Of a stretch of DNA of 64,000 nt, positions 3,858-27,760 are shown in pieces. Source of the DNA: an uncultured Chloroflexia bacterium (GTDB lineage Bacteria; Chloroflexota; Anaerolineae; Anaerolineales; E44-bin32); the NCBI GenBank assembly GCA_963727915.1, contig CAVSID010000001.1:124954-188953 (forward strand), in the 5' to 3' direction. The position numbers were made by a program, and so were the translations under genes. Every line of letters starts with the position of its first letter. The first letter of the stretch is position 1. Below the pieces are notes generated by a model. That model ran no database searches and was not told the origin of the DNA. It saw nothing but the letters and a program-made list of their open reading frames with translations.

Positions 3858-4190
3858 TTAGCGCCCTCTGCTCCGGTAGACGCCCTTCTTGGCCTTCCGC
3901 CGCTTGGGGGTCGGGGCATCGGTCTCACTCGGCTTGATCGGGAACATGACGGCGTACACAAAGCTGACCAAACCAAAGCCCAACAGGAGGAACAAGAAAC
4001 CTACCACAAGCTTGGGCATCAAACCGTACGGCAACCAGGACGGCATGAACGAAGGCTGGACGGCCTCGGGTGGGATGTAGATCCAGCCATAACGAGCGTT
4101 GCTGACCAAGAACCAGCTCGAGAAGGCGTAGCCCGCCACGGAGAAGACCACCATCAAAAGGCAGCCCACCCCTCGCCAGATGGGATTCAT
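3858..4190 (-). CDS. Small membrane protein (110 aa, 2 predicted TM helices, Lys/Arg-rich tail), function unknown
   Basis: Intact ORF with hydrophobic runs GVGCLLMVVFSVAGYAFSSWFLV and LVVGFLFLLLGFGLVSFVYAVMF. Its stop lies 7 nt before the start of the 582-aa ORF. Confidence 0.6.
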   Translation of the reverse strand: MNPIWRGVGCLLMVVFSVAGYAFSSWFLVSNARYGWIYIPPEAVQPSFMPSWLPYGLMPKLVVGFLFLLLGFGLVSFVYAVMFPIKPSETDAPTPKRRKAKKGVYRSRGR

Positions 4191-4307
4191 CCGTTGACGT
4201 TCTTCGCGCTCTTTGTCAAGCTGTCGGTAGCGATAGGATTTCGCGTCCCATGAGCTTCCCCTTCGGGCTACCTTCCTGCCCTGGACTTGGATGTGAATTC
4301 GTTCAGA

Positions 4308-5756
4308 TCAATCCGCAGTTGAGCGCAGCGATGGGTCACTTTCCCTCGCCGCCTGCTCGACAGCCTCAATAATCTTGTAGTAGCCGGTGCAGCGGCAGAG
4401 ATTCCCGGTGATCGATTGCTGGATGTCCCAAAGTGTCGGCTGCTGGCGCTCTTCCAAGAGCTTGGCGCCCGACATCAAGAATCCCGGTGTGCAGTATCCA
4501 CACTGCACCGCACCTCGATCCAAAAACGCTTGCTGGATCGGGTGAAGCTCTTCGCCGTCCGCCAGACCTTCGATCGTGACGATCTCTGCGTTATGGGCAC
4601 GTGGCGCGGGCACCATACAGGCCATCACCGCCAAACCGTCCAGGTAGACGGTGCACGCGCCACATTCTCCCTCGGCGCAGCCCTCCTTGGTGCCGATCAG
4701 ATCACCCTCTTCGCGCAGCAACCGCAGAAGTGTCTTTCCCTGGCCGGTGTCAAACGTGCGTTCCTGGCCGTTGATCGTCGTTCGAATCAGCTTGTGGGCA
4801 TCGTGCGCCTCGGCCTCCTCGAGCATGCGCGTCCAGTGGTATTCGATTGGTCCCCACAAGGTGATGGGGCGATCAGGATATCCGTGCCGCTCATTTCCGG
4901 CGGCCAGGCTGCGGAGCGCTCGCCGGACCGTGGTTCGGACCATGTCTGAGCGGTAGGCGCTGCTCCCTCGCACATCGTCAATTGGGTGGGCGGCCGCCAC
5001 GGCGGCGTCAGCCGTGTCTTCAATGTTTTCCGGTGTCAGCGGCGCGCCTTGCAGCACTCGCTCAGCTGCCTCGGCGTGCACGACTGTAGGGGCCACAGAA
5101 CCCAGCGTGATGCTCGCCCGGCGAACGCTCTCGCCATCCATCTCGAGGAGCACGGCCGCGTTGACGATCGAAATTGCCTGCGCCCGGCGCAACCCCAGTT
5201 TGATGAATGTACTTCTGGATCCGGACGCCGGTAGGGGAAATGAGATGTCCACCAGCATTTCATCGGGCCGCATGACGGTCTTCCGCACGCCCTCATAGAA
5301 TTCGCCCAGGGGGACAAGCCGTTCCCCCGACGTCGAGCGCAATTGGACTTGGGCGCCCAAGGCCATTAGGGGCGCAATGGAGTTGTTGGCCGGTGAGGCC
5401 GTGATCAGATTGCCCGCCACAGTGCCCCGGTTGCGGATTTGGGGCGCACCCACTTCCCAACAAGCCCGCGCCAGCGCGTACGCCTGATCGATGATCAAGG
5501 AAGACGCGGCACAGTGATTGTGGGTTACCAGAGGTCCCATGTGCACCAGACCATCTTCGCCTGGCTGGATGATATCCAATCCCGGGATCCGGGTGATGTC
5601 GATTAGGGTCGTCACACCCGGGCGTTGACCCCGTTCGAGCTCCAGAATCAAATCGGTGGCACCGGCCACGATCCGGGCGTTGCCCTGATTGGCATGAAGC
5701 GCCCGGATCGCCTGATCCAGGCTGGTTGGCGTGAGGTAGCGGTCCCACAAGTTCAT
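4308..5756 (-). CDS. Xanthine dehydrogenase family FAD-binding subunit fused to a C-terminal [2Fe-2S] subunit
   Basis: The N-terminal part (IVAGATDLILELERG...RNRGTVAGNL...DDVRGSSAYR) matches the CoxM/XdhB-type FAD domain. The C-terminal part (GCAEGECGACTV...CGYCTPGF...GNLCRCTGY) carries the two 2Fe-2S cysteine clusters of CoxS/XdhC(E. coli)-type proteins. Confidence 0.9.
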   Translation of the reverse strand: MNLWDRYLTPTSLDQAIRALHANQGNARIVAGATDLILELERGQRPGVTTLIDITRIPGLDIIQPGEDGLVHMGPLVTHNHCAASSLIIDQAYALARACWEVGAPQIRNRGTVAGNLITASPANNSIAPLMALGAQVQLRSTSGERLVPLGEFYEGVRKTVMRPDEMLVDISFPLPASGSRSTFIKLGLRRAQAISIVNAAVLLEMDGESVRRASITLGSVAPTVVHAEAAERVLQGAPLTPENIEDTADAAVAAAHPIDDVRGSSAYRSDMVRTTVRRALRSLAAGNERHGYPDRPITLWGPIEYHWTRMLEEAEAHDAHKLIRTTINGQERTFDTGQGKTLLRLLREEGDLIGTKEGCAEGECGACTVYLDGLAVMACMVPAPRAHNAEIVTIEGLADGEELHPIQQAFLDRGAVQCGYCTPGFLMSGAKLLEERQQPTLWDIQQSITGNLCRCTGYYKIIEAVEQAARESDPSLRSTAD

Positions 5757-6580
5757 TCCGGCTTGGCTCCCTTGGCGCGGCGCTGCACGGGCGTGTGCGC
5801 CATCGACTCCCCTGATCCCCCTCGGCGCAGCATGATCACCTGCCCTAGTACGCTGACGGCGATTTCTTCGGGCGTTTCAGCGTTCAATTCTAATCCCATC
5901 GGTGAGGTGATTCGGGAAATCTGATCCTCTGGGACCCCCGCCCCCTTGAGTTGTTCCACAGTCGTCTGCCATCGCCGTCTCGACCCGATCACACCGATGT
6001 AGGCAGCCTGGGTTGCCAGCAGCTTCGGGAGACCCTCAACATCCAGATCCACGCCGCGCGTCGTCAGCAGGATATAGGTCTGTGAATGAACTTCCACCTG
6101 GTCGGTGATGTCCTTCATGGCACACGTCACGACGCGATCCACGTCGGGCACATCATCGGATTCAGCGAAACCTGGCCGGTCATCGACAACCGTCACGTCG
6201 AATCCCAACCACTTGCCGAGATGTGCGGTGGCGTTGCCCACGTGGCCTGCGCCGATCACCAGCAGGCTTGGCTTAGGTTTGACCGGTTCGATCACCACTT
6301 GTATTTCTCCTCCGCAAACCCCCACGTCGCCCTTCAAAGGATCTTGAAAGACGTAATCCCGAACGCGCAGCTGGCCGTCAGTAAGCGCGGCCAGCGCCTC
6401 GGTGATCACTCGATGTTCCATATCCCCGCCGCCGATGGTGCCCTCGGTCGATCCATCGGGCAGGACGAGCATCTTGCTGCCCTCGTGCCGGGGCACGGAA
6501 CCTCGGGCTGCCACGATAGTCACCAGTGCGGCCTCTTTGCCCTCGGCCTCCAGGGCAGCCAGACGCAAGTAGATGCTCAT
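5753..6580 (-). CDS. xdhC: XdhC/CoxI-family molybdenum cofactor insertion accessory protein
   Basis: The N-terminus AALVTIVAARGSVPRHEGSKMLV...GTIGGG is typical of XdhC_CoxI, followed by a Rossmann-like LLVIGAGHVG. It overlaps the downstream xdh gene by 4 nt. Confidence 0.85.
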   Translation of the reverse strand: MSIYLRLAALEAEGKEAALVTIVAARGSVPRHEGSKMLVLPDGSTEGTIGGGDMEHRVITEALAALTDGQLRVRDYVFQDPLKGDVGVCGGEIQVVIEPVKPKPSLLVIGAGHVGNATAHLGKWLGFDVTVVDDRPGFAESDDVPDVDRVVTCAMKDITDQVEVHSQTYILLTTRGVDLDVEGLPKLLATQAAYIGVIGSRRRWQTTVEQLKGAGVPEDQISRITSPMGLELNAETPEEIAVSVLGQVIMLRRGGSGESMAHTPVQRRAKGAKPE

Positions 6581-7924
6581 CTAGCCCTCGAGCAAAGCCA
6601 GGACCGTTGGCAGAAGCTGCTTCTTGCGTGAGACGACGCCTCTGGCGTCCAGCGTGCCATCGGGAAGGTGAGGAAAGGGCAGCTCGTCCAGGGCCGGCGG
6701 CGCCGACTGCAGCACCAACCGGCTGGAGCCGCCAACCACGTCGGTGATCATCAGCAAGCTGAAATCGAGACCTTGTTCTTTCTTCAGGGCTTCCAGGGCT
6801 TTCCGTAGGCCCTCAAGGTGGTCGGCAAGTTCCAGGTAATCGGTGACTTCAACCTGGGAAATGGCGAACTTATGCCCGCCTTCTTCATAGACCTTCAGAT
6901 CGCCGGTGACGACCGAATCTGGATCGTGCGACACCAGGCCGGCGCCGGCTTGCAGGAGCTGGCCTCCGAATGTCTCGATTGTCTCTCCCGCCAGCGGCCC
7001 GCCCCCGACGAAGGCCCAACGCGCCAACACCTCGGCGGTTCGGCGATCCCGGTCGGTGGTTGTGGGCGAAGCCAGGATCAGTGTGTCGGAGAGCAACCCG
7101 GCCAACAGCAGGCCGGCTTGCGGCGGCGGTGCGCTCAGCCCGGTTTCTTGAATGCGCTCAGCGACCAACGTACTGGTGCTGCCCACCGGTTCAATCCAGA
7201 ATCGGATCGGCGCCCGGGTGGCCGGGTTGTCCAGACGGTGATGGTCAACCACTTCAATCAGCTCGGCCTCGTTCAGAGAGCGCACAGACTGCTTGGCCTC
7301 ATTGTGATCCACCAAGATGATTCGCATGCGGGGCGGGTTTAGCAGATCTCGCTGACGGCAGATCCCCTGATAGGCGCCCCTCTCATCGATCACCCAGAAC
7401 TCGTTGCGTTCCTCACGCAAGATCCGGGGAAGTAGGTCTCTGATCCGCCAGGTGGCCTGGAACTTGGGGACGCCTTTGTCCGCTGCTGCTTCGCTCGGTT
7501 GGTTGAAGATCTCGGCCAGCTTCTGCTGAGGCTGGTCCGGCCTGTCGCCCACCAATTGGCTAAGATGGCGAAATAGGCTGAAGGCGGTGATCAAGCCGTA
7601 GGGCATGCCGTCGGAGTCGACAACGGGAGCAGCGAAGCCGGTCCGCCCGGCGATGGACCACGCCTCCCGGAGAGGCTGGCTGGGGAGGACGCTGTCCAGC
7701 CGCCGCGCGACGTCAGCGAACCGGGGCGAGGCGTCGGCCAGCAGTTCAGGCGGTTCGAGACCGAGGCGATCCAAGACCCACGCCGTCTGTCGATTGATGT
7801 TGCCCGCCCGTGCCGCAAGGACCTGATCCCCGTTCGTGGCGCTGAGAAGCCAGGCATACCCGACAGCAGATGCGATCGCATCTGTGTCAGGGTTAACATG
7901 GCCCACGACGTAGGTCTTGTTCAT
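6581..7924 (-). CDS. DHH/DHHA2 phosphoesterase with an inserted CBS pair (CBS-domain family II inorganic pyrophosphatase-like)
   Basis: Motifs GHVNPDTDAIAS, LVDHNE, VVDHHR and a C-terminal DHHA2-like SRKKQLLP. A ~120-aa insert lies between DHH motifs II and III, as in CBS-PPases. It abuts xdhC with no gap. Confidence 0.75.
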   Translation of the reverse strand: MNKTYVVGHVNPDTDAIASAVGYAWLLSATNGDQVLAARAGNINRQTAWVLDRLGLEPPELLADASPRFADVARRLDSVLPSQPLREAWSIAGRTGFAAPVVDSDGMPYGLITAFSLFRHLSQLVGDRPDQPQQKLAEIFNQPSEAAADKGVPKFQATWRIRDLLPRILREERNEFWVIDERGAYQGICRQRDLLNPPRMRIILVDHNEAKQSVRSLNEAELIEVVDHHRLDNPATRAPIRFWIEPVGSTSTLVAERIQETGLSAPPPQAGLLLAGLLSDTLILASPTTTDRDRRTAEVLARWAFVGGGPLAGETIETFGGQLLQAGAGLVSHDPDSVVTGDLKVYEEGGHKFAISQVEVTDYLELADHLEGLRKALEALKKEQGLDFSLLMITDVVGGSSRLVLQSAPPALDELPFPHLPDGTLDARGVVSRKKQLLPTVLALLEG

Positions 7925-7981: not shown

Positions 7982-8509
7982 TCAGGCGTCCGACTCCCGG
8001 TTTGGGTTATCAGGATACAACCTCCACCCCAAGGAGTTGAGCATGGTCTCGTCTGTCGAACCTGCTGGCATGGGTGCCAGTGTGGCATCCGCTTCGGCAG
8101 CCACGGTCCCATCCGGAAGCCGGATCTCAGCGGTGGCGGTGGCCACCCGTCCCGCCGGTCGAGTGAGCCTAGCTTGGAGGTGAAGTCCTTGGCCGGTTGG
8201 GACGGGCTTACGATAGCGAATTTCCAGCTTGGCGGTCATCATGAACCGATTGTGCTGCCCGATCATCGCAGCCCGGCTGACCATCTCATCCAACATGGAG
8301 GCGACAACGCCTCCGTGGACCACGCCGGGATAGCCCTCAAAATGCTCAGGAACCGTGTAGTGGGACTCAAGAAGATCCGGGCCGAGCTCGTAGAACGTCA
8401 ACCCCAGGCCGTAAGGATTCTCGAGGCCGCAGGCGAAGCAGTTGCGTGAATTGGGCTGTTTGACGGTCCCGGCTTGGGCGGCGTGCGGATCGGATTGTAT
8501 AGCCATCAT
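7982..8509 (-). CDS. PaaI/hotdog-fold thioesterase family protein
   Basis: NCFACGLENPYGLGLTF...GYPGVVHGGVVASMLDE is the typical PaaI-type motif arrangement. Confidence 0.7.
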   Translation of the reverse strand: MMAIQSDPHAAQAGTVKQPNSRNCFACGLENPYGLGLTFYELGPDLLESHYTVPEHFEGYPGVVHGGVVASMLDEMVSRAAMIGQHNRFMMTAKLEIRYRKPVPTGQGLHLQARLTRPAGRVATATAEIRLPDGTVAAEADATLAPMPAGSTDETMLNSLGWRLYPDNPNRESDA

Positions 8510-8558
8510 TCACCCTCATATGGTCGTGGAGGGCGGCGATGGATGCTTGCCACCCCGG

Positions 8559-9557
8559 TCAAGCTAACGGGCTGAAAGTGTCGATTAGGAGCTCCACGCT
8601 CCCGCCCACGGGGTACAGGATCGGGCATGTGCAGCCGTGATCGATGTACTCCTGGACCTTGCGCTGGGCGTCTTCTGGTGTGCCCGACGCCGTGATCCGT
8701 TCGACCAAGTCATCCGGAACGAAATGCTTGGCTTGCTGGATTTGCTCGTGGGTCGCCGGCCAGCCGAGGATCCCCTGGATCTCGTCGACCACATCCTGTG
8801 AGACGCCGCTGGCCTTGGCAATATGTGGCTGTTGCGCCAGGTACTGAGTGAGCAGTTCGCGGCTGGTATCGAGCGCTTTGGCCCGGTCGGGATCCACCGA
8901 TGCCACCACCAATTGCGGCCGATCGATGCTCTCCAAGCTGCGACCCGCCCTGGCTGCGCCCGCTTCAAGTTGTTCCATGGCGGGGTCGTTGTATGCAGGC
9001 GGCACGCAGTAGTTCATCACGACACCGTCGGCGATCTCGCCAGCCAACTCCATCATCTTGGGGCCCGTGGCTCCAATATAGATCGGCACGTTGCGCGGTT
9101 CACGACGCCCGTGGACGACATCCAGCTCGATACCGTCCACATGGTGGAACTCGCCATGAAAGGTCACTCGCTCCATGTTGAGCAACCTTCGCAAGACCTC
9201 CACGGTCTCCTTCATCGCCGTCAGGGGTTTCCTGCGCTGTATGCCAACGTTCTGGGCCAGCGGATCCCACCAGGCGCCGATACCGCAGATCACGCGATTG
9301 GGTGCCAAGTCGTCCAGGGTGAGGAAGGTAGATGCCAGAAGGCCAATGTTGCGGGTCCAATTGTTGATTACCCCGGAGCCCACCTTGATCTTCTCTGTCA
9401 CGGCGGCGTAGGCAGCCATGGGCACGATGGCATCCCGCACCAGGCGCGATTCCGCCTGCCAGACAGCTTCAAACCCTTTGTCCTCGGCATAGCGTGCGTA
9501 GGCCAATCCGTCGCGCAGGTCGTGTGCATCTTGAAGATAGAGCGCCACTCGCTTCAT
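8559..9557 (-). CDS. LLM-class (luciferase-like, Mer-like) F420-dependent oxidoreductase
   Basis: 332 aa. Segments [17 protein letters not shown]...[14 protein letters not shown]...[24 protein letters not shown] fit the bacterial luciferase/Mer fold. It overlaps cofC by 4 nt. Confidence 0.8.
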
Positions 9558-10189
9558 GTTCCTGGAATCTCCTCGGCGGCTTTGATCGGCTGTCCCTGCT
9601 CTGACCTGAGGATCTCAAGGTCTTCAGGCAAATCCACGTCAAGGGCGAGCGATGGCAGCTCGCATACCTCCAACCTGGCACCCGAAGATTTCGCCCGAGC
9701 GACGTGCCTGGAGAAGCTGTTCGGGCCGAAATCATATTCTATCAAACCAGGCGGCGCCGACAGCAAAGCGTTCGTCCCGGTTCCGTGTCTGTCCGGCGCG
9801 ACGACCACTACCGGAGGGTCATGGGCCAGGGAGAGCAGGTGTTCCACGTCCGCACGTGTGATAAGAGGCAAGTCGGCGGGCAGAATCAGCACCCGAGAAA
9901 CGCCATACCCCCTCGCCACCAGAGTCGCGCGGATCAAGGCGCGGTTGAGCTCTGGTGTTCCGTTCTCCTGGACGGTCCGCGCGCCGAACTCACGCGCCAC
10001 AGACAGGGCCATCGAATCACGGCTTATCACCAGCGTGTGTTCGACTTCCGGCACGTCTCGGAGCACGTCCAAGGTGTGCGTAAGAAGCTCCCGGCTCAAC
10101 AGAGCCCGCTCTTCCACCGACAACACACCGGCGAGCCTCGATTTGGATCGGCGCAGGGGTTTAACAGGCACAATCGCCCAAAGCGTCAC
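9554..10189 (-). CDS. cofC: 2-phospho-L-lactate (or PEP) guanylyltransferase CofC/FbiD
   Basis: [21 protein letters not shown]...LVISRD...LPADLPLIT is the CofC signature. It has 4-nt overlaps with cofD upstream and the LLM gene downstream. Confidence 0.8.
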
Positions 10190-11139
10190 AGGATTGTCTC
10201 CGTTTTCAGCAAGGCAGTGGCAAGACCCAGTACATCTTCAGCAAGCGCCGCCCGCGCCGCTCCGTCAAGCATAACGGTCCCGGTCACGAGCGTCTGAATT
10301 CCCATCTCACGGATGGATGCGGCGAAATCTTCGTCCTGGTTGTCAATCACGAACCCGTCGAGCAGGTCGTTGAAGTGCCCGGCGACGGCCGCCGCATCAG
10401 CCCGCAATCCGAGCTCCCGGGCCATCTTAGCTGCCGGCCCCTTGATGGCTCGCCCCCCGACGATGGGCGAGACCCCCAAAACGGGTTTTGATGTGATGGC
10501 CTGGCGCACGCCGGGCACATTCAGGATAGGATCAAGGCTGACCCAGGGATTGGACGGGCAGAACACAACCACATCGGCCCATGTTAACGAATCCAGTACA
10601 CCCGGAGCCGGCTGCGCCCGTGAGGCGCCTTCAAAGCGAAATCCCTTGACTTTGGGCTCGCATCGTCTGGCCACGAAGTAGGTCTGAAAAGAAAGATCGC
10701 CCTCGTCGGTTTCAACCACTGTTGGTATGGAATCATCGCTCATCGGCAGAACGGAAACGGTCACACCCAGAGCGCGCGACACCTGCTGGACGAAACCGCT
10801 CAGGGTCATCCCCTCGTGAAGCGCCTGAGTCCGAAGCACATGCAGCGCAACGTCCTTGTCCCCCAATCGAAACCAATCTGGCCCGCCCATGGCCTTCAGA
10901 CTCTCCATGAAGTGCCAGCTGTCGTCCGCTCGCCCCCAGCCCGTTTCGGGATTGGCGATACCGGCCAATGTGTACAGGACCGTGTCCAGGTCGGGGCAGA
11001 TGTGTAGGCCCAGGTGGTCGAAATCGTCCCCGGTATTGACGACGGCCCTGAGGTGGCCGGGAGGCAGCACGGCCGCCAGGCCGTCAATGAGCTTGGCCCC
11101 CCCGACACCCCCGGCCAGAGCAGTTACCTTCAGCGCCAC
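10186..11139 (-). CDS. cofD: 2-phospho-L-lactate transferase CofD/FbiA. The start is probably the GTG at 11139, not the track start at 11226.
   Basis: KVTALAGGVGGAKLIDGL...VNTGDDFDHLGLHICPDLDTVLYTLAG...GWGRADDSW is the classic CofD N-terminus. The GTG at 11139 overlaps the stop of the nitroreductase gene. Confidence 0.9.
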   Translation of the reverse strand: MALKVTALAGGVGGAKLIDGLAAVLPPGHLRAVVNTGDDFDHLGLHICPDLDTVLYTLAGIANPETGWGRADDSWHFMESLKAMGGPDWFRLGDKDVALHVLRTQALHEGMTLSGFVQQVSRALGVTVSVLPMSDDSIPTVVETDEGDLSFQTYFVARRCEPKVKGFRFEGASRAQPAPGVLDSLTWADVVVFCPSNPWVSLDPILNVPGVRQAITSKPVLGVSPIVGGRAIKGPAAKMARELGLRADAAAVAGHFNDLLDGFVIDNQDEDFAASIREMGIQTLVTGTVMLDGAARAALAEDVLGLATALLKTETIL

Positions 11140-11744
11140 AGGACAACCTCGTCCAGCGTCCTGCGATCCCGATCGCGGCCTGCCTCGTCCGGGTAGCCTA
11201 AGGCGATCATCCCTTGGGCCTCCCAATCAGATGGAAGATCCAATTCCTGGCGCACAATGACCGGCGTGAACAATGGCGAGCACAGCCAGCATGCGCCAAG
11301 GCCTTCAGCGTGAGCGGCTAGCAGCAGCTGCCCGCCCGCCAAAGCGGCGCTCTGGACGGCCATGGTGTGCTCAGCGGTCCGACGGTCGCCATCCGGGTAG
11401 CTATCCATGTCCTGCATAGTGAGGAACAACATCACCACAGCCGCTGCACCCAGCATCCGGTCACGGCCGCGGGCCACAATTCGTTCGATCTCATCTGGCG
11501 GCAGACCATCGCGTGCCAGATCAGCCCGAAATGTTTCCGACATGGTCGCAATCAATTGTCTCCGAAGTTCATCATCCTGCAGCACGACGAACCGCCACGG
11601 CTGTCGATTGTGGGCCGATGGGGCCCGGCAGGCAGCCTCCAGGATCCGCCGCAGGACCGCCCTCTCAAGAGGTTGGTCGGTGAACTTGCGGATGGAGCGC
11701 CGGGTAGCGACAAGCTCCTGGAAGGCTTTCTGGGTATCTGTCAC
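11130..11744 (-). CDS. Stand-alone nitroreductase-family protein resembling the C-terminal domain of FbiB (candidate dehydro-F420-0 reductase)
   Basis: RRSIRKFTDQPL...APSAHNRQPWRFVVL...YPDGDRRTAEHTMAVQSAALAGGQLLLAAHAEGLGACW...DWEAQGMIALGYP. It sits inside the cof operon. Confidence 0.7.
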   Translation of the reverse strand: MTDTQKAFQELVATRRSIRKFTDQPLERAVLRRILEAACRAPSAHNRQPWRFVVLQDDELRRQLIATMSETFRADLARDGLPPDEIERIVARGRDRMLGAAAVVMLFLTMQDMDSYPDGDRRTAEHTMAVQSAALAGGQLLLAAHAEGLGACWLCSPLFTPVIVRQELDLPSDWEAQGMIALGYPDEAGRDRDRRTLDEVVLWR

Positions 11745-12175
11745 CTGTTGGTAAAGAAAGACTTGGCCCTAATTGTGTAGATGACCCGGGTTTGTCCTTC
11801 GGTCGATCTCGGAAAGCGATCAACCCCGTGGTACTTCAAAGCCAGATGGTCCAAATGAGCCTTGGCGTCTGCCTCGGTTCGGGCGACGACCTCGCCGCGT
11901 ACCTGAAGATAGCGATAGGGATTTTCGGGATCGATGATCGTGAGCGCCACTGCGCCTCGCTGGAGCATATTTCTATCCTTGATATTCCCGCTGGTCGTGT
12001 TCACTCTGAAGTCGCCATCCAGGACGTCAAACCACATGGGTGTCGCGTGCGGGCGTCCATCGGGCATCAATGTGGCCAGCACAGCGAAGGCCCTCTTATC
12101 GAACGACACCAAGTCCTGGGCTGATTCTGGGATTTGCATGCCAGGGTGAACCTCCGAGGCCAATTGCCACAGCAC
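11741..12175 (-). CDS. PPOX-class (split beta-barrel FDOR) probable F420-dependent enzyme. The ATG at 12139 is the more likely start.
   Basis: FAVLATLMPDGRPHATPMWF...NTTSGNIKDRNMLQRGAVALTIIDPENPYRYLQVRGEV fits the pyridoxamine-phosphate-oxidase-like FDOR family. GGAGG lies upstream of the 12139 ATG. Confidence 0.7.
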   Translation of the reverse strand: MLWQLASEVHPGMQIPESAQDLVSFDKRAFAVLATLMPDGRPHATPMWFDVLDGDFRVNTTSGNIKDRNMLQRGAVALTIIDPENPYRYLQVRGEVVARTEADAKAHLDHLALKYHGVDRFPRSTEGQTRVIYTIRAKSFFTNR

Positions 12176-12281
12176 CGGAGTGGAAGGGAGGCCCTTCCAC
12201 GATAGCGCCGGCCCTCACGGGCACCGGCACCTCCTATTCTAACGGATTGGCGCTTCCACCTGAATCACCCCTTTGTCTCCC

Positions 12282-13065
12282 CTAGCGGAACAGGTCCTCC
12301 GATTTGGGCCGCAGAAGCTCGCCCAGGGAGCCATCCCGCAGGGGATAGGGCAAACCGCGCACATGCACGAACGGGCGCCCCTCATCGGCCTGACCCATCA
12401 GCGCCGATGCCGCCGCGGCCAGTTCGTCTGCCAAACCAACTTGGGTGATCTTTAGCGGCTCGCCGAAACAGGTCTGGCCGCCCCCTCAGATCCAACAGCG
12501 CCGGGAAGTGAAACACGCCAATCGCTACACCCACCGTTCCCATGCGCCAGGCACGTCCGTGGGAATCGATGATCAGGACGCCAACTTCAGCTCCGGTTGC
12601 CGCTTCGAGAGTTTGGCCGAGGCGCCGGGCCGATGCATCCGGGTCCTGCGGCAGGAGAAGAACCCATGGTTCGTCTTCTCGGCCTGGCTCGCCGGCCACG
12701 TTCGAGTGGTCGACTCCGGCGTTGGCGCTGACGAACCCCAGCCGGTGCTCGACCACCAACACACCGGAGTGAGACCGGAGGACTTCGGAGCTTTCACCCA
12801 GAACAACCTCGACCAGGCGGGGGTCCTTGCCGACGTCTTGCGCCAGGCTGATGGCCTGGGGAGAAGCTACGACATCGTTGAGACAGACCAACCGCCCCTC
12901 GGACTTGGAAACCACCTTTTGGGCAACCACCAAGACATCACCCGATTGGAGAGCTATGCCACAGGCCTGCAATCCGGCCCGGACCAAGGCCGACAAATCG
13001 TCCCCCGGATGCACCAGCGGCACATCAGGCAGCGCGGTCAGCGTGAGTTGGTATGGGGCCGTCAC
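12282..13065 (-). CDS. cofE: Coenzyme F420-0:L-glutamate ligase CofE (one frame break near 12465)
   Basis: ORF 12382..13065 carries VVAQKVVSKSEGR...GFVSANAGVDHSN...IIDSHGRAWRMGTVGVAIG. After ...RGRPDLF the reading CTG TTT c GGC GAG continues in the next frame as GEPLKITQVGLADELAAAASALMGQADEGRPFVHVRGLPYP...EDLFR, with a stop at 12282. Confidence 0.85.
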
Positions 13066-13730
13066 TTCTTCAGTCCCACTACCTTGATTGATCCACGCAG
13101 GGATTTGTAGTGCTTGTTCATGCGGATGATCACGGCCGTCAGGCCTTCGATAACCACGGCGTTGTCGAGTCCGCCAGCGAAGTAGCCGTTCATCCCGGCG
13201 CCCTCTGCCAGTTTGATGACTTCCTCGGCAGCGGCCTCATCATCGGCGCAGATCAACACGTCCACATCGATGGGTTCTTCGGGTTTCTTCTTTAACACGA
13301 AGGCCGGCGCGGTTTGGAAGCCCGCCACGACGCGCACTCCCTCCCCGAGGATCTCCTGGGCGGTGCGTGCCGCCGACGGCGGCTCCGGCGGCCGGGCGTC
13401 GCGAAAGTCCACCCGGGCCGTCGTATCCACCAGAATCTTGCCCTGCAGATCATCCTTGAGACTCTTCAGGGCGGCGTCGTGGGCCGTGTAGTCCACGGTC
13501 AAGATGGCGATATCTGCTTTGCGAGCTGCATCCGCATTCTCCATCCCCTGGATGGTATCGAGGCCGAGCTCTTCATTGAGTTGGGCGGCCACCCCTTGCG
13601 CCTTCTCAGCCTGCCGAGATCCGATCAGGACCTGGTATCCGGCTTTGGCCCAACGGCTCGCCAGCGCCGGGCCCGACTGCCCGGTGCCCCCCAAGACGGC
13701 CAGGGTCAGGATCAAACGTTCGTCAGTCAT
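13062..13730 (-). CDS. npdG: NADPH-dependent F420 reductase (F420:NADP+ oxidoreductase)
   Basis: LAVLGGTGQSGPALASRWAKAGYQVLIGSR...ADIAILTV match the Rossmann N-terminus and length of NpdG/Fno. There is a 27-nt gap after ssnA and a 4-nt GTGA overlap with cofE. Confidence 0.8.
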   Translation of the reverse strand: MTDERLILTLAVLGGTGQSGPALASRWAKAGYQVLIGSRQAEKAQGVAAQLNEELGLDTIQGMENADAARKADIAILTVDYTAHDAALKSLKDDLQGKILVDTTARVDFRDARPPEPPSAARTAQEILGEGVRVVAGFQTAPAFVLKKKPEEPIDVDVLICADDEAAAEEVIKLAEGAGMNGYFAGGLDNAVVIEGLTAVIIRMNKHYKSLRGSIKVVGLKK

Positions 13731-13757
13731 GTACCCTCCAGAATCTCGTCCGACGCC

Positions 13758-15117
13758 CTAGTCGGGCGGTACGTTCTGGTTGTACCGTGCCCAAACGGCG
13801 GGAACACGCTCACGAGCCTTGGCCATGATTTCGGCTTCGTCCAGGGTCAGCAGCTCTCGGTCCCGCATGAGCAGGCGGCCGTCGACCATCGTGGCGGTCA
13901 CCATCAATTCGTGGAAACCAAACACAATATGCCAGGGGAGGTTGCCTGCATGGACTGGCGTCGTGGGATGGTAGTTCACCAGGATCAAATCGGCCCGGGC
14001 ACCGGTCTGGATAACGCCGAGCGGCGCCCCCGGGAAGAAGCCGCTCGCCAACGCTGCGTTGTTCACGACGGCCATCTGGGCCAGTTTGTCGGCCGGCATG
14101 CGGCGCGGATCACGATGCCACACTTTGTGCAGCAGGTAAGCCGTCTTCCATTCTTCCCACATGGCGTTGGAGAACCCATCGTTGCCCAGGCAAACCCGCA
14201 CGCCCATGCGCAAGAGCGAATCGACGTCCGCCACGCCGACGCCGTTGTTCATATTGGAGCGGGGCTGATGGCTGACCCAGCTTCCGCACTCCGCCAGAAG
14301 TTCCATCTCGCGTCCGTCCACATGGATGGCATGCGCCACGATTGTGCGTTGGTCGAGAATTCCGTGTTCAAGCAAGCGGTCGACGATGCGCGAACCTGAT
14401 TTCTGAAGACTATCGTACTCGTCGGCTTCATGCTCAGCGACATGGATATGAAATGCCGTGTCCGCAGGTGCGGCCCGACGGCAGGCATCCAAGCTCTCGT
14501 CGGACAGCGTCAGGCTGGCGTGCAGGCCAAAAGCAGCCGCCACGCGCCCGCCGGCGACCGAGCCGGTCGAGCAGCGCTCGATGAAGCGCACATTCTCTTC
14601 CCGTCCGGACGCCGATTTGGCTTCGCCATCCCGATCGGTGACTTCGTAGCACAAGACGGCCCGCAATCCGGAACGGTCGACGGCATCGGCGATTGTGTCC
14701 AGAGATCCGGCAATGGCGTTGGGGGAGGCATGATGATCGATCAAGGTGGTCGTGCCGTGGCGGATGGCGTCCACCAGGCAAACCAGCGCCGAGTAGCGCA
14801 CATCTTCGTCATCCAGAGCTTTGTCGAGCGGCCACCACAGTTTTCGAAGCACATCTGGGAAATCTCGCGGCGGGCGGCCGGGAATGGCCATGCCGCGGGC
14901 GAACGCGCCATAGAAGTGCGTATGGGCACAGATGTTGCCGGGCATCAACCATTGGCCTCGCCGCGTCCAGCGTTTCCTCGTCGGGGTGCGCCTGGGCCAG
15001 CTCGGCGGTCGGCCCTACGGCATCGATTGTGCCATTTTTCACAAATAGGGAATGGTCTTCGAGGATTTGGTTGGGCTGACCCCAGGTGACCAGGCAGGCG
15101 TGGGTGATGAGCATCAT
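13758..15117 (-). CDS. ssnA: SsnA-like putative aminohydrolase (amidohydrolase superfamily). One frame break near 14963.
   Basis: ORF 13758..14948 reads MPGNICAHTHFYGAFARGMA...LRKLWWPLDKALDDEDVRYSALVCLVDAIRHGTTTLIDHHASP...HIHVAEHE...RSNMNNGVG. This tracks E. coli SsnA blocks (LWWRLDRALDEE, VIDHHASP, ARSNMNN), recalled from memory. The N-terminal 55 aa (MMLITHACLVTWG...) lie in ORF 14809..15162. I chose the ATGATG at 15117 preceded by GGAG as the start. Confidence 0.8.
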
Positions 15118-15458
15118 CAACTCCTGGATGCTACGCGCTTCGCGCTGGGCCAGCGCGAGCATAGCCAGAGCAGCGGTTTACAACGCAGTTTAGAACGGTG
15201 GGAAATCAGCTGGTGAGGGGGCTGCGGCACGCCGGGAGAGGCGGAGGGGATCATGCTCGCCCCGCCGACATTGGTGGTGGCATTGTGTGCGGTATTGACA
15301 ATTCGGGCCTCGTGCCGTCCCATGCCCGGTCTCGTCCCGGGCACGTAGTTGTGCCTATCGGCAGCCAGCGCCTGGCTGGACCGTGAATTCAACCAACCGC
15401 CCATGAGGCACGCTATGCTGGCGGTGCAGGAGCGGTGGATGAATCCGCGGCAAGCGTC

Positions 15459-15487
15459 ATTCTAGCACGCAGATTCGAGGGAAACAA
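15459..15487 (-). promoter_or_regulatory. Candidate sigma-70-type promoter (TTGTTT - 17 nt - TGc TAGAAT) heading a ~335-nt leader to ssnA
   Basis: The reverse strand reads TTGTTTccctcgaatctgcgtgcTAGAAT, with -35 at 15482-15487 and -10 at 15459-15464. It lies 35 nt downstream of the hydantoinase stop. Confidence 0.5.
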
Positions 15488-15522
15488 ACCCACCGCCCTT
15501 CGCCACCTCCAGACCTGCTGTC

Positions 15523-16948
15523 CTAGACGATTGCGGCGCCCGAGAGCCGGTGCTGAAAGCGGCCCATGCCGGGTTTACCAAGCCATCGGTTGCCATCGAC
15601 GATCATTTCCCCGCGCAGGAACACTTTTTCGGGGAACCCCTGCAGTTCCCAGCCTTCGAAAAGATTGTAGTCCGTGCGATGCTTGGCATGGGCGACGCCG
15701 TACGTCAGCCGCCGTTCCGGATCCCAGATCACGATATCGGCGTCCGCCCCCGGCACAAGTGCACCTTTGCGAGGGTAGAGGCCGAAGATCTTGGCAGGAT
15801 TCGTGCTGGTGAGCGCCACGAATTGGTTGGGAGTCAGGCGCCCTTGGCCCACGCCGTATGACCACAGAACCGGGAGCCGATCCCCGACCCCAGGCAGGCC
15901 ATTGGGGATCTTGGTGAAGTCCTCGGCGCCGAGCTCCTTGCCAGGGATGGCCACCGGTTGTCCCTCATATTCAATCGGCTTCGTGCCATCAAAGAAGAAC
16001 GGACAGTGGTCGGTGCCCACCGTCTGAATCACGTCACGGCTCAGACCCTGCCACAATCCGCGTTGGTCATCCGGCGTGCGGATCGGCGGGGAACACACCC
16101 ACTTGGCGCCGTCGGGGCGTGAAAGCAGGTCATCACTAAAGAAGAGATATTGAGGGCAGGTCTCGCCCATCACCGGCAGCCCTTTTGACCTCGCGTAGGC
16201 CAGTTGATCGACCTCACCGGCGGTGTTCATATGCACAACGTACAGGGGAGAATCGGCCTGAGCCGCCAGGGCAACTGCTCTGAGGAAAGCCTCAACTGCT
16301 CCCCAGGCGGGCCTGGTGCGTGCATGGTACTCAGCCGATGTATGGCCAGCCGCCAGGGCTTCGCGTACAAGCACGTCAATCACATCGCCATTCTCGCCGT
16401 GCAGCATGGTGAGCATGCCGTGCTCGGCACCTCGCCGCATCACCTGAAAGATCTCCCCGTCCTGCAGCCTGAGCCTTCCGTTGTAGGCCGTGAACACTTT
16501 GAGGGTGGTGATTCCCAGGTCCACCAAGGACGGTATTTCGTCGAGAACCTGCTGGTCGAGGCGGGTGATGTTGGCATGGAATCCGAAGTCGATTGCCGCC
16601 CGTCCATCCGCCCGCTCGTGCCAGGCGTCAACGCCCGCTCGCAAACTTCCCTCGTCGAGCTGAGGGACGAAGTCAAGACGCGGTAGTGGTTCCCCCAAAG
16701 GCCGCTGCCTTGTGGCCAGTGTAGTGGTCATCGGATGACACTGTGTCGAACATGGGCAGGTTGAAGTGGGTGTGCGGATCGATGCCGCCCGGCATCACGA
16801 GTTTGCCGCTGGCGTCGACCACTTCCCCGTCCTCGCCATCGAAGTGCTCGCCGATGGCGACGATGCGCTGGTCATCGATCAGGATGTCGGCCGAAAAGGT
16901 TTCTTCGGCGGTGATCAGGGTGCCACCCTGGATCACTGTGCTTCCCAT
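15523..16948 (-). CDS. hydA: Dihydropyrimidinase / D-hydantoinase (cyclic amidohydrolase). One frame break near 16690.
   Basis: ORF 16673..16948 (GGTLITAEE...MPGGIDPHTHFNLP...AAAFGGTTT) and ORF 15523..16731 (LDFVPQ...AIDFGFH...TLKVFTAYNG...HGENGD...VVHMNTA...VGTDHCPF) form one enzyme. The junction ACC ACT ACC g CGT CTT GAC TTC carries one extra base. Confidence 0.9.
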
Positions 16949-17053
16949 GTTCGTTTCCTCCGCCCCTACCGGTGGACTTCGAGACTGACGGGCACCAACA
17001 TTATAGGCCCCCGGACGGCGGGAAGGTGCCCTGGCGGCGGATCAGGAAGAGGG

Positions 17054-17088
17054 TCTAAATCGCAAAGGCAGCCCGATGGGCTGCCTTT
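17054..17088 (-). terminator. Probable intrinsic terminator after the Zn-ribbon gene
   Basis: The reverse strand reads AAAGGCAGCCC-auc-GGGCUGCCUUU followed by GCGAUUUAGA. An 11-bp stem is seen directly in the sequence. Confidence 0.5.
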
Positions 17089-17111
17089 GTATGCGCCGAA
17101 CAACACCGGGT

Positions 17112-17630
17112 TCAGTTCAAGAAGTATTCGGTGCCGCAGTAGGGGCAGGTCACAACCCCTTTCCCCACGAGCTTGAGCTGCCCGCCGCAGTTTTTGCACT
17201 TGTCGAGTTCCCTTAGAGCTGACGCATCCTGAGAATACAGGATACCTTCATCCCAGTTGATGAAGCCGGTGAACAGCCCCATCCCCACCAAAGAATGGAT
17301 CTCCTCCTGCACCTGACTGCGGCTCGAGCCCAGTTCAAGCACCAGGTCGCTGATTGGCACCTGGCCCCGGCTCTTAACCTCATCCAGGATGCGCCTGAGT
17401 TCGGTGCGCTCGGCATCCTCCGCCGCTTCTCTTCCACTACGGACCAGCAAGAACATCCCGGCCCCGATCAGAGGTAGGACCACGATGGCCAGGAAGGCAC
17501 CCCCGAGTACTGCCCCGGTCACCTGCAGTCTGCCTCCAGTGACGCTGGCTACAAGCCACAGCACGCCGATCAGCGCCAGGGCAAGCCCGCCGCCGATCAG
17601 GAGTATTCCCATCAATCTTCCACTTCTCAT
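17112..17630 (-). CDS. Membrane protein with 2 TM helices, a winged-helix-like segment and a C-terminal CxxC...CxxC zinc ribbon. Function unknown.
   Basis: I trimmed the track ORF 17112..17960 to the ATG at 17630, giving MRSGRLMGILLIGGGLALALIG. The C-terminus is CKNCGGQLKLVGKGVVTCPYCGTEYF. The upstream 110 codons are out-of-frame DUF2207 tail sequence. Confidence 0.6.
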   Translation of the reverse strand: MRSGRLMGILLIGGGLALALIGVLWLVASVTGGRLQVTGAVLGGAFLAIVVLPLIGAGMFLLVRSGREAAEDAERTELRRILDEVKSRGQVPISDLVLELGSSRSQVQEEIHSLVGMGLFTGFINWDEGILYSQDASALRELDKCKNCGGQLKLVGKGVVTCPYCGTEYFLN

Positions 17631-17661: not shown

Positions 17662-19544
17662 TCATCCGAAACCGGCACTGCCGCCCCCGCCACCGCCCCC
17701 ACCGCTGAACCCTCCGCTGCTGAAACCGCCCGCCACCGCTTCCACTTGAAGACGGCGCCGAGCCCAAAACACGGCCAGTGCTGTTCAGCATCTGGGTCAA
17801 GCCGTCGCTCATGCTCTGCAATCCGCCCGACAGATTGTCGGACATCCCCTGCAACCCCCCGCTGCCAGAGCCAGTCATGGCCGGCGTGGTGCTGGCCAGG
17901 CCCCCAGGGCGGCCACTGCCGCCGCCCGTGCCATACGGGCCGCCATACGGAATGTACCAACCAGGGGCAGGGGTATTCGTCATGGTCGAGAACTTGTGCA
18001 CAAAGGATTGGTTCATGCCGAAGGCAATCGCGTACGGCAAGTAGCGTTCGAAAAGATCGCCCAATTCTTTGATGTCATTGAGCTGGTCGATCTTAGCCAG
18101 GTAGTTCTTGAAGGCTTTCCAACGTTCGGCCGCCTCGGCACCGGCCCAGGTCTTGGCAGGCATGAAATTGCCTGCCACCAGGGCTGCCACCCCGGAGACA
18201 CCCAGCGCCAAGGGCAGGCAGGTCAAAGCGCCGGCATAGGTCGCCAGAGGAAAGAGGATGAAGCCCGAGACGAAGGCGACGGCCAGAACTGCGATCCCGA
18301 TGCCAATCCACAACTTGCGTGTTCTGTCCGGGCTGGCCTTGAAGAAGCCGTGCGTCACGAGTTGTTTGTAAAGGCCCTTTTGGATATCGGGCAAGCGGGT
18401 ATAGAACTTGTTCTTCAGATCGCTCAGGTCGCGCTCGGTCTTGTGCCCAGTGAAGATGCCATGCATGATCTCGCGCTCGTAGTCATTGAGCTCGCTGAAA
18501 TCGTCCTTCTGCTTGCGGAATACGAAATCGGTGGACCCTAACCCGAGGAAGCCTTTCGTCTCGGACTCTTCGATGGTCATATACCCGCGGCGGGCCAGAT
18601 CAACAATGCTGGCCACTACGTCTTGCATGTCCGCCCGCTCATCGATCAGGGTGCCCAGAATTCCGGGTGGCAGATCCTCCGGAGGTTCGGTAACGTACTC
18701 GGGAACGTCAGCCACCTTGGGATCCCGACCCCGCATATACCACAGCAGATAGACGCCGAGAGGCCCGCCAAAGGCAAGCAGGACGGCCAACAGCCCGACG
18801 ATGCAGGTTGAGTGCCGGTCGAACGGTTCGGTCGTAGGCCTCGGCCTGGTCAACGCTGGCCTGCCACGCGGGCGGGTTGGATGGGATGATGCCGTGTGTG
18901 AACTCAACCCCGATTTCCATTCGGTCGCTGGCCGACATGCCGTTATCGGCCACAAACGAGACCGACGTGCCATCCGGACTCTGCCGCCATTGGGTGTTGA
19001 CCCCGGCCGAGTCGATGGTCATGAACTTGGCCCCGCTAGGTAGGAACACGGTCGTGCTGGCTTCCTCGATCGGGAAGTCCCGCTGGTTGTCAATGGCAAT
19101 CCACTGCAGCTTGTCGCCTGAGTCGTAGATCCTCACGCCGCCATGCACTGTGTAGGCAATGTCGTACGAACGCGTGGTATCGCTCAGCTGTGGGAAGTAC
19201 CAGTAGATCTCCAGATTGCCGCCGCTTTGCTCCGCGGTGAACGTGTATGGCGTGCCACTGTACCCGACTTGCTGGTACGTTTGCCCCCCGGGCTCACTGA
19301 TGGTCACATCGCTAATCCCATTGGTTTTGTCCAATGGAATCACCCGATAGCCGTGGGTGAAGCTGCCCGACGTGAAGCGGATTTGCTGATGCTCGACAAC
19401 TCGGAGATCCCCATTGGGCTGGATGCTCAGAGAGACGTCATAGCGGTCCCAAACCAGCGTCTTCGATTGTGCGCGGGCCGGGAAACTCGGTGCGAGGAGC
19501 AGGGTCGCAATGAGCGCCAGGACGAGCAGACGCAGTTTTCGCAT
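17662..19544 (-). CDS. DUF2207-family membrane protein with signal peptide and Gly-rich tail (frame breaks near 18830 and 17745)
   Basis: The N-terminus is MRKLRLLVLALIATLLLAPSFPARAQS...VWDRYDVSLSIQPNGDL. The middle part is LLWYMRGRDPKV...EPPEDLPPGILGTLIDERADMQDVVASIVDLARRGY. Re-framing the tail gives GGGGFSSGGFSGGGGGGGGSAGFG with a stop at 17662. Confidence 0.8.
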
Positions 19545-25137: not shown

Positions 25138-25145
25138 TCCGTCTC

Positions 25146-27689: not shown

Positions 27690-27720
27690 GCGCCTCGAAG
27701 GCTCGCCCTAGAGGCAGGAA

Positions 27721-27749: not shown

Positions 27750-27760
27750 TTGACGGTTGT

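Follow-up and report, generated by a model that had tools for sequence, protein, structure and literature searches.

We have analysed a 64,000-nt stretch of DNA (hereafter, the window; ~61% G+C) from an uncultured Chloroflexia bacterium of the order Anaerolineales (assembly GCA_963727915.1, contig CAVSID010000001.1, positions 124,954 to 188,953), in which the amidohydrolase gene ssnA is joined to genes for the synthesis, reduction and use of the deazaflavin cofactor F420. The genes of this cluster all lie on the minus strand, in the order hyuA, ssnA, npdG (Fno, the NADPH-dependent F420 reductase), cofE, a PPOX-class F420-dependent oxidoreductase (FDOR), a nitroreductase (NTR), cofD, cofC and a luciferase-family (LLM) oxidoreductase resembling Mer, the 5,10-methylenetetrahydromethanopterin reductase (Table 1). 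On the gene content and by analogy with the known systems, we favour the reading that the cluster encodes the central part of the reductive uric-acid (2,8-dioxopurine) pathway in a form particular to Anaerolineae, in which a deazaflavin system would replace the reductases YgfK and UacX.

In E. coli and Clostridium, urate is reduced by XdhD to 2,8-dioxopurine, also called yanthine (PMC12507026; bioRxiv 10.1101/2025.04.24.650524). Yanthine is dearomatised by YgfK (DOPOR), an Fe–S flavoenzyme acting as NADPH:2,8-dioxopurine oxidoreductase (bioRxiv 10.1101/2025.04.24.650524), and in C. difficile by the PydA-like UacX (PMC12507026). SsnA then cuts the reduced ring to give ureidomethyl-hydantoin and 5-ureido-dihydrouracil, and HyuA, YgeW/YqeA, YgeY and YgeX complete the pathway to pyruvate and ammonia (PMC12507026; bioRxiv 10.1101/2025.04.24.650524). 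Activity of YgfK towards yanthine could be detected only in a coupled reaction with SsnA, which the authors attributed to unfavourable thermodynamics and tied to the co-localisation of ygfK and ssnA (PMC12507026). Indeed, ygfK ends 2 nt before the start of ssnA in E. coli, confirming the neighbourhood named in a first-pass annotation of the window, and in the window, too, a set of reductase genes lies directly beside ssnA. The window shares with these clusters SsnA, HyuA, carbamate kinase, a YgeW-like protein, an Xdh-type Mo hydroxylase with XdhC, a purine deaminase and a transporter. In contrast, it has no YgfK, UacX, YgeY or YgeX, the slot of the reductase is filled by Fno and the Mer-like LLM, F420 biosynthesis genes are embedded, and no XdhD-like orthologue is next to the cluster.

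Gene identities were assigned with curated profile hidden Markov models (NCBIfam/TIGR and Pfam), of which bit scores are compared with the family cutoffs in Table 1; a close relative with intact orthologues (locus L001, SsnA 90% identical) served as the reference for reading frames and starts. Over its full length, SsnA shares 34–36% identity with E. coli SsnA (34% for the close relative P0002), and its homologues, which number thousands in metagenomes, are all 451 aa long and up to 91% identical; they place the source among the Anaerolineae/Anaerolineales. HyuA shows 39% identity to E. coli HyuA, spread over two frames in tblastn, and its orthologue in L001 is an intact protein of 474 aa. The ssnA stop codon (13758–13760) is separated by 27 nt from the npdG start (13730), and npdG overlaps cofE by 4 nt (13062–13065). 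In the following unit, the overlaps are 4 nt (FDOR/NTR), 10 nt (NTR/cofD, with the cofD start at 11139 set by alignment with the L001 orthologue), 4 nt (cofD/cofC) and 4 nt (cofC/LLM). The identities and the junctions, together with a TAGAAT box at 12241–12236, are the same as those given by the first-pass annotation, which had read them from the letters of the window. The cofE–FDOR gap, put there at ~100 nt, is 106 nt when the FDOR starts at GTG 12175 and 142 nt when it starts at ATG 12139; the latter, preceded by a conserved GGAGG ribosome-binding site, is most likely the actual start.

Table 1. Features of the window, with the cluster genes and their intergenic regions first and the flanking genes after them (bits, score against the named family; ORF, open reading frame)
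Feature	Positions	Strand	Basis or remark
hyuA/hydA, D-hydantoinase/dihydropyrimidinase	15523..16948	-	TIGR02033 408.6 bits (cutoff 393)
Intergenic leader upstream of ssnA	15115..15467	-	~350 nt; conserved in window, L001, L083
ssnA, amidohydrolase	13758..15114	-	NF005540 461 bits (cutoff 444), reached even with truncated ORF
npdG/fno, NADPH-dependent F420 reductase	13062..13730	-	TIGR01915 176.3 bits (cutoff 149.8); PF03807 matches too
cofE, F420-0:gamma-glutamyl ligase	12282..13065	-	TIGR01916 189.5 bits (cutoff 181)
cofE–FDOR intergenic region	12140..12281	-	TAGAAT 12241-12236, GCCGG...CCGGC hairpin, GGAGG before ATG 12139
PPOX-class F420-dependent oxidoreductase (FDOR-B, Rv1155-like)	11741..12139	-	TIGR03618 92.3 bits (cutoff 79.05)
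Stand-alone nitroreductase-fold protein, FbiB C-terminal-like ('FbiE')	11130..11744	-	best TIGR03553, 171 bits, under cutoff 250
cofD/fbiA, 2-phospho-L-lactate (or enolpyruvyl-diphospho-5'-guanosine, EPPG) transferase	10186..11139	-	TIGR01819 310 bits (cutoff 257)
cofC/fbiD, guanylyltransferase	9554..10189	-	TIGR03552 167 bits (cutoff 105)
Mer-like luciferase-family (LLM) F420-dependent oxidoreductase	8559..9557	-	PF00296; top NCBIfam matches are F420-LLM families
Hotdog thioesterase	7982-8509	-	Pfam/NCBIfam
DHH-CBS phosphoesterase	6581-7924	-	Pfam/NCBIfam
XdhC-type maturation factor	5753-6580	-	Pfam/NCBIfam
Fused FAD + 2Fe-2S subunit	4308-5756	-	Pfam/NCBIfam, tblastn with E. coli Xdh proteins
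Small ORF	3858-4241	-	
DUF6909 (~585 aa)	2103-3851	-	Pfam/NCBIfam
Mo-binding hydroxylase subunit, cut by window edge	1-1917	-	tblastn with E. coli Xdh proteins
PALP2	20275-21735	-	
GT2 glycosyltransferase	21743-22711	-	
PALP1 (threonine-synthase-like)	22728-23996	-	
Bmp-type ABC transporter	24139-29147	-	
Carbamate kinase	29077-30123	-	NF009007 339 bits (cutoff 266); 47% identity to E. coli YqeA
YgeW-like knotted carbamoyltransferase, truncated or frameshifted	30120-31016	-	39% over 265 aa; TIGR03316 172 bits (cutoff 500)
ATCase-like protein	31162-32112	-	
Further split amidohydrolase fragment	33461-34000	-	
Split 8-oxoguanine-deaminase-like gene	34884-36202	-	

The arrangement is widely conserved. 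By alignment of SsnA, 80 loci were collected from species-representative genomes, almost all of Anaerolineae and with SsnA 62–72% identical, and the cluster proteins were mapped onto them; a gene was counted when it was on the ssnA strand, and each denominator is the number of loci with enough sequence downstream of ssnA. The npdG gene was found downstream of ssnA in 61 of 65 loci and cofE in 57 of 61, followed by FDOR (33/60), nitroreductase (45/58), cofD (49/57), cofC (46/51) and, closing the operon, LLM (44/50). In the reverse direction, 80 metagenome loci were fetched via LLM, and an ssnA orthologue was located upstream in 23 of the 25 that had at least 7.5 kb of upstream sequence; the gene directly before LLM was cofC in 53 loci and ssnA in 2. 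The link among ssnA, the F420 genes and LLM is kept in ~100 related species, and because the arrangement recurs across species, it is far beyond chance. Co-occurrence across genomes, on which the first-pass annotation had made its proposal depend, is hence found in both directions, and the juxtaposition is not unique to this genome. In terms of sequence, LLM is the best conserved protein of the cluster (median identity, 79%), followed by SsnA (65%) and by CofE and CofC (60–61%), with lower values for the nitroreductase (within 45–47%), the FDOR (46%) and NpdG (45%).

The full cluster is also present in a complete 5.63-Mb genome, that of Phototrophicus methaneseepsis (L164; CP062983.1, 4064777–4085784), which we take to be a cultured isolate. 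Its gene order is PALP1-GT2-PALP2-hyp-SsnA-NpdG-CofE-NTR-CofD-CofC-LLM-...-XdhC-FAD/FeS-DUF6909-Mo subunit; the LLM is 71% identical to that of the window, and the FDOR is absent from the locus.

Several loci keep SsnA and LLM together with no cof genes. In a metagenome-assembled genome (MAG) of Caldilineales (L061), ssnA-npdG-LLM is accompanied by an M20 peptidase, an XdhD-type fused hydroxylase, a deaminase and a transporter; one MAG that was binned as Acidobacteriota (L074) has an XdhD-type hydroxylase, two PALP genes, ssnA, LLM and a CN-hydrolase; and in a second MAG binned as Acidobacteriota (L057), LLM directly follows ssnA. Because the adjacency persists in these three loci, the conserved functional pair is, as judged from gene neighbourhoods, SsnA and LLM, usually with Fno. 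The same loci bear on the idea that the F420 operon stands beside ssnA by inheritance or mere co-regulation, with LLM acting on a substrate unrelated to purines. Such an origin would suit the facts that cofactor operons often carry one client enzyme, that an internal promoter-like element divides cofE from the second unit and that the cluster contains no FO synthase (FO being the precursor of F420). The adjacency is, however, maintained at 62–72% identity of SsnA and in both search directions and survives where the cof genes are absent, and ssnA, npdG and cofE, which meet at a 27-nt gap and a 4-nt overlap, are not divided by any terminator. We thus consider a coincidental placement of the operon quite unlikely.

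The reductases of the known pathway are, in turn, missing. E. coli YgfK, PreT, PreA and YgeY gave no tblastn match in the window, and no homologue of YgfK passed the coverage filter in any of the 80 SsnA-fetched loci. PreT/PreA-like genes were found in only 5 of the 80. In four of these (L050, L053, L058 and L060), a preT/preA-like pair and a second SsnA paralogue (41% identity) follow cofC; the four were counted as having no LLM, which lies beyond the insert in L060, whereas L050, L053 and L058 have no sequence past the insert. In the fifth, L043, cofC is followed by a PreT-like gene alone, where the contig ends. It is worth mentioning that in L050, L053, L058 and L060, a reductase gene paired with an SsnA copy, like ygfK and ssnA of E. 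coli, occurs a second time within one operon. Neither the window nor almost any of the related loci has a reductase of the YgfK or PydA type, which agrees with the earlier suggestion that YgfK or a reduction of the dihydropyrimidine-dehydrogenase type may have been replaced. Because a reduction must precede the SsnA step and there is no further candidate for it, LLM would be the ring reductase. A protein of ~800 aa encoded after LLM in Phototrophicus and in a sister clade (see below) was considered as a possible relative of the unknown domains of YgfK, but it is not related and has no Pfam match; as read by eye, its sequence is hydrophobic and probably membrane-spanning.

The features of LLM are consistent with an F420-dependent enzyme. 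Its 17 best NCBIfam matches are all F420-class LLM families, with Mer first and none reaching the cutoff. The nearest solved relative is again Mer, both in sequence (E 1e-43) and in fold (template modelling score TM 0.80, predicted model); other F420 enzymes (FGD1, Adf and FGD2) come after it, and only then FMN-dependent monooxygenases. Also, the 22 best fold matches of the model in the PDB are F420 enzymes. The AlphaFold model was built from a shallow alignment (27 sequences, 84–95% identity) and was used for fold-level matches only, its predicted local distance difference test score (pLDDT) being 73 and that of the active-site loops <50. Residues were compared with those of jMer through an HMMER alignment and the mutational study of jMer (PMC11094777). 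The non-prolyl cis-peptide G61–V62 of jMer, the backstop of F420, aligns to the invariant G62–V63 of LLM, and the carboxamide on beta6 to the invariant Asn182; where Asp96 and Phe233 contact the pterin in jMer, LLM has Trp97 and Gln238, respectively, and the region of the catalytic Glu6 has no aligned counterpart. N65-N66-W67, W96-W97-D98, H245 and Q9-D10-x-H12 of LLM are invariant as well. LLM is predicted to retain the F420 site because Gly62-Val63 and Asn182 match jMer, and to act on a substrate different from that of Mer because the pterin residues are replaced. Mer (PDB 8QPL and 1Z69) and LLM have in common the TIM-barrel luciferase-like fold, the Gly–Val backstop and the beta6 carboxamide, whereas their identity is ~30–35% and LLM lies in a bacterial purine context with no adjacent genes for one-carbon (C1) carriers.

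Thousands of LLM homologues are registered by JGI as “5,10-methylenetetrahydromethanopterin reductase.” If this name were correct, LLM would be a genuine methylene-tetrahydromethanopterin (or methylene-tetrahydrofolate) reductase in C1 metabolism, for which one can cite that, among characterised and solved proteins, Mer is the closest to it and that a FolD fragment is found at 36570–37205. Nonetheless, LLM scores far under the two Mer equivalogs (180 bits for TIGR03555 with a cutoff of 349, and 182 bits for NF002619 with a cutoff of 276), its pterin residues are replaced with Glu6 left unaligned, and its gene context is purine catabolism. We rejected the identity as Mer on these grounds and give it almost no credence. 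The JGI name is probably a misannotation that is systematic in Chloroflexota, and it wrongly suggests a C1 metabolism of the methanogen type.

By analogy with the known pathway, the substrate of LLM is likely 2,8-dioxopurine. In the scheme that we propose, NpdG/Fno would reduce F420 with NADPH, and LLM would pass the hydride from F420H2 on to 2,8-dioxopurine, at its pyrimidine ring. Because both reported products of SsnA carry C6 as CH2 and C5 as CH, we infer that the hydride would be added at C6 and that C5 would be protonated, a reaction close to the hydride transfer of Mer to an iminium carbon. SsnA would at once hydrolyse the dearomatised ring and thereby pull the unfavourable reduction forward; HyuA would open the second ring, and the carbamoyltransferase and carbamate kinase would harvest the ureido groups. 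The name npdG is derived from the Fht/Npd system of picrate catabolism. In that system of Rhodococcus and Nocardioides, hydride transfer from Fno-fed F420H2 dearomatises an electron-poor ring for the use of its carbon and nitrogen, which is parallel to our proposal when likened by function as listed in PMC8498797; the ring (nitroaromatic versus oxopurine) and the phylum are different.

F420 itself would be built from FO by CofC, CofD, CofE and the FbiB-C-like nitroreductase, which are encoded in two back-to-back transcription units, and the source of FO would have to lie elsewhere in the genome or outside the cell. CofC, CofD and CofE all exceed the NCBIfam equivalog cutoffs, with one base to be removed for reading through cofE. 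The nitroreductase best matches TIGR03553 (FbiB's C-terminal domain; E 2e-50) and PRK13294, and BluB and the classical nitroreductase families score far lower. In Thermomicrobium roseum, a member of Chloroflexi, a stand-alone homologue of the FbiB C-terminal domain, “FbiE,” is used for the reduction of dehydro-F420-0 (review PMC8498797 citing Braga 2020). Because of this best match and the precedent of FbiE in T. roseum, we assigned the nitroreductase to cofactor biosynthesis, most likely as the dehydro-F420-0 reductase, and rejected it as a reductase of the pathway substrate. The set is the same as in known bacterial F420 biosynthesis (FbiE of T. roseum; FbiD/FbiA/FbiB of mycobacteria) in having CofC/FbiD, CofD/FbiA, CofE and a separate FbiB-C-like nitroreductase; in contrast to those sets, there is no FO synthase nearby, the nitroreductase is under the family cutoff and missing from 13 of 58 loci, and the operon is inside a catabolic island.

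The other oxidoreductase in the cluster, the FDOR, deserves consideration as the F420H2-dependent ring reductase in place of LLM, given that it scores over the cutoff of the F420-dependent PPOX family and that menaquinone, tetracycline and biliverdin are among the varied compounds that FDORs reduce (PMC8498797). Its occurrence in only 33 of 60 loci, its median identity of 46% and its absence from many loci keeping ssnA and LLM, Phototrophicus, L061 and L074 among them, nonetheless make such a role very unlikely, and we rejected the FDOR as the core reductase for its patchy occurrence and weak conservation. Because it is optional and poorly conserved, the FDOR is regarded, from its distribution, as an accessory gene. 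The first-pass annotation had proposed that NpdG together with the FDOR and/or the LLM replaces YgfK; the part of LLM, the best conserved protein in loci devoid of YgfK, is upheld here, while that of the FDOR is given up.

In a search of representatives for relatives of LLM, full-length ones were found only at ≤50% identity in a continuum down to the level of Mer; this search led to a sister clade, the genomes of which include GCA_964602375.1 and GCA_034437635.1. The LLMs of this clade (L166–L170; contexts of P0391, P0393, P0395 and P0396) are 50–54% identical to that of the window, and the npdG-cofE-NTR-cofD-cofC-LLM operon is kept. The XdhC-FAD/FeS-DUF6909-Mo module is kept in three of the four species-level contigs (L168–L170), and L166 has only DUF6909. 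The link of the F420–LLM operon to the DUF6909-type hydroxylase is thus no less faithful than that to ssnA. The LLMs of the sister clade have the changes N66I, W97H, D98E and H245A in loops, at positions that do not vary among the ssnA-linked LLMs, which would fit a changed substrate.

It should be noted that not all observations are in favour of a pathway in which LLM serves SsnA. In none of the four sister-clade contigs was ssnA found at the locus, and neither was PALP2; because the F420–LLM operon is kept there with no ssnA in the locus, the operon is not strictly tied to adjacent ssnA. The window, L001 and L083 do not have the XdhD-like gene found after LLM in many relatives, and in four loci one operon holds both an SsnA paralogue and a PreT/PreA-like reductase. 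LLM is below the cutoff of every curated family, and its model is only moderate (pLDDT 73), being lowest in the active-site loops. An FO synthase was not found in the window, as the first-pass annotation had stated: the radical-SAM motif CxxxCxxC is absent from all genuine ORFs of ≥70 aa in the 64 kb, and none of the ten largest ORFs in 41–64 kb matched the models of FO synthase (CofG/CofH/FbiC). This motif was also sought in the genes inserted between cofE and FDOR of other loci, and none was found. Finally, ssnA, cofE and hyuA are frameshifted in this window, as described below.

In light of these points, the LLM/F420 system might act in purine catabolism at another step or on another substrate; it might reduce a different oxopurine or ureide, or serve the DUF6909-containing Xdh-type hydroxylase, for instance as its redox partner or by converting its product, and SsnA would then be a mere frequent neighbour. 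The sister-clade loci keeping both the F420–LLM operon and the XdhC-FAD/FeS-DUF6909-Mo module with no ssnA point in this direction, as do the Xdh module after LLM in Phototrophicus, L001 and the window and the XdhD-like genes after LLM in many loci. The LLMs with no ssnA are, however, a small and divergent subfamily (50–54%) with changed active-site loop residues; LLM stays beside ssnA in L057, L061 and L074, and the reduction needed ahead of SsnA has no further candidate. We hence regard another step or substrate as rather unlikely and retain the reading of LLM as the reductase acting before SsnA.

As for the frameshifts, which the first-pass annotation had overlooked, ssnA, cofE and hyuA each have a 1-nt insertion in the window and are intact in close relatives, as revealed by tblastn and local DNA alignment. 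As written, ssnA is split into one frame from 15114 to ~14960 and another from 14948 to 13758, and removal of one base within 14954–14963 restores the 451-aa SsnA (15114 to 13758). Similarly, cofE as written stops at 12382, with the TIGR01916 match ending at profile position 185 of 244; tblastn with the intact orthologue shows that the gene continues in a second frame, and removal of one base within 12462–12471 gives a 260-aa CofE terminating at TAG 12284–12282. The frameshift of hyuA is near 16634–16677, and a DUF2207 gene and a small ORF have the same kind of 1-nt insertion (the remaining sites, ~18804–18880 and ~19790). Namely, there are at least five single-base insertions in ~8 kb relative to the intact L001. 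Further genes that seem split or truncated are the YgeW-like gene, two amidohydrolases, folD and gyrA (30120–31070, 33461–36202, 36570–37205 and 46672–48381).

These disruptions could mean that the module is decaying in this genome and that the frameshifts of ssnA, cofE and hyuA are real pseudogenising mutations, a matter independent of the function of the intact system. The number of insertions relative to the intact relative and the further split-looking genes would be in line with decay. Unrelated genes including gyrA are, however, affected at about one per few kb, all five of the five sites examined are single-base insertions, and the reading frames outside the insertions are 80–92% identical to the intact orthologues. 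This pattern fits better with indel errors in the assembly than with selective decay, which we consider unlikely.

The first-pass annotation had also divided the cluster into two units at the TAGAAT box between cofE and FDOR. This cofE–FDOR region is nearly free of mismatches among the window, L001 and L083, compared with ~80% identity over the aligned, mostly coding DNA of the locus, and is probably an internal promoter or a leader of the second transcription unit. In another clade of Anaerolineales, a 35-nt motif, AAAAnnCTAACrrGAATCTTATGCACnTTTGATACACT, is present once per locus downstream of cofE, before FDOR or the nitroreductase (L017–L050, L063, L070, L133, L147, L154 and L162). The motif had 27 matches in 2.1 Mb, 26 of them on the operon strand, and all but one of the 27 fall in the interval from cofE to the operon gene after it. 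Its appearance is that of a conserved operator or internal promoter, the latter with an extended -10 element TGnTACACT. Because this motif and the TAGAAT element are both conserved downstream of cofE, the two-unit architecture with an internal promoter or operator is supported.

The leader of ssnA has a promoter-like TTGTTn-17-TAGAAT that is likewise conserved, with TAGAAT at 15464–15459, ~345 nt upstream of ssnA, and further conserved blocks, namely GGTTGAATTCACGG, a CCCGG/CCGGG hairpin and GAGGCCCGAATTG. An invariant CTCCTGC in the leader is complementary to the ribosome-binding site (Shine-Dalgarno) of ssnA. A structured RNA is not supported for this leader by the fold z-score of -0.59 and a three-sequence consensus with a positive covariation term. 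The TAGAAT boxes are defined by their conservation among three close relatives. A scan of 8000–17500 with the sigma-70 consensus called no promoter, the TAGAAT of the cofE–FDOR region included, and terminator-like sites in the same interval were no commoner than in shuffled sequence, with none between ssnA, npdG and cofE. Rfam gave no match in the whole window at the gathering thresholds or in 12100–15600 at E≤1, and hence no known riboswitch in either of the two leaders; neither the TAGAAT regions nor the 35-nt motif is supported by an Rfam match, fold or covariation.

The flanking genes include many that would belong to purine catabolism. The Xdh module downstream of LLM has the same gene order in L001 and Phototrophicus. 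Its Mo subunit, partial in the window, is 28–29% identical to XdhA/XdhD of E. coli, with PucD as the best NCBIfam match at a score under the cutoff. In ten related loci (L088, L097, L099, L103, L105, L123, L128, L139, L140 and L142), YgfM-like and XdhD-like genes (36–39% to E. coli XdhD) are found between the thioesterase and the DHH gene. DUF6909 is placed between the FAD/2Fe-2S and the Mo subunits in both LLM clades (L001, L166, L168–L170 and L164, i.e., Phototrophicus) and may serve the Xdh-type hydroxylase as a maturation factor or as a subunit not yet characterised.

Upstream of ssnA, a PALP1-GT2-PALP2 block recurs in L013, L034, L074 (the “Acidobacteriota” MAG), L081, L097 and Phototrophicus, with two pyridoxal-phosphate enzymes around GT2, one threonine-synthase-like and the other CysK-like with 93% conservation. 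YgeX gave only a weak match in the window, 29% over 79 aa, to the threonine-synthase-like PALP1, and the PALP enzymes are candidates for the YgeX-type step. Genes for a YgeW/AOTCase-like and an ATCase-like carbamoyltransferase adjoin the carbamate kinase gene (29077–32112). It is a speculative idea that the two carbamoyltransferases remove both ureido groups phosphorolytically, which would explain the lack of YgeY.

The first-pass annotation had known of no F420-dependent step in purine catabolism. As a hypothesis, this statement is out of date, since Li et al. 2025 noticed, in a genome-neighbourhood network, SsnA neighbourhoods of Chloroflexota with a PF00296 “putative F420-dependent” enzyme instead of YgfK/UacX and inferred such a step (PMC12507026). 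That paper was the only one found in our literature search that joins F420, Chloroflexota and uric acid, and a 2021 review on F420 never mentions purines (PMC8498797). The inference of the first-pass annotation is thus independently supported by an idea already published as a remark, and the system would be a variant of a known pathway. New in this study are the conservation quantified by searches in both directions, the embedding of the entire supply chain of the cofactor in the cluster, the distinction of LLM, FDOR and nitroreductase by role, the sister clade with no adjacent ssnA, and a named organism with a complete genome and the cluster, Phototrophicus methaneseepsis, as a practical test system.

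We would tentatively go one step further and suppose that Anaerolineae make F420 chiefly for the reduction of purine rings, LLM possibly being a single-subunit, Fe–S-free F420H2:2,8-dioxopurine oxidoreductase that works with SsnA, with biosynthesis, recharging and the client enzyme co-transcribed with the pathway. If this is true, the reaction would be the first F420-dependent step in the catabolism of nucleobases and, after YgfK and UacX, a third and structurally unrelated solution to the difficult dearomatisation in anaerobic urate degradation. Such a simple one-subunit enzyme would also be of interest for engineering uricolytic strains. For Anaerolineae, a mostly uncultured class that is abundant in digesters, sediments and sludge, it would provide the first defined physiological role of F420.

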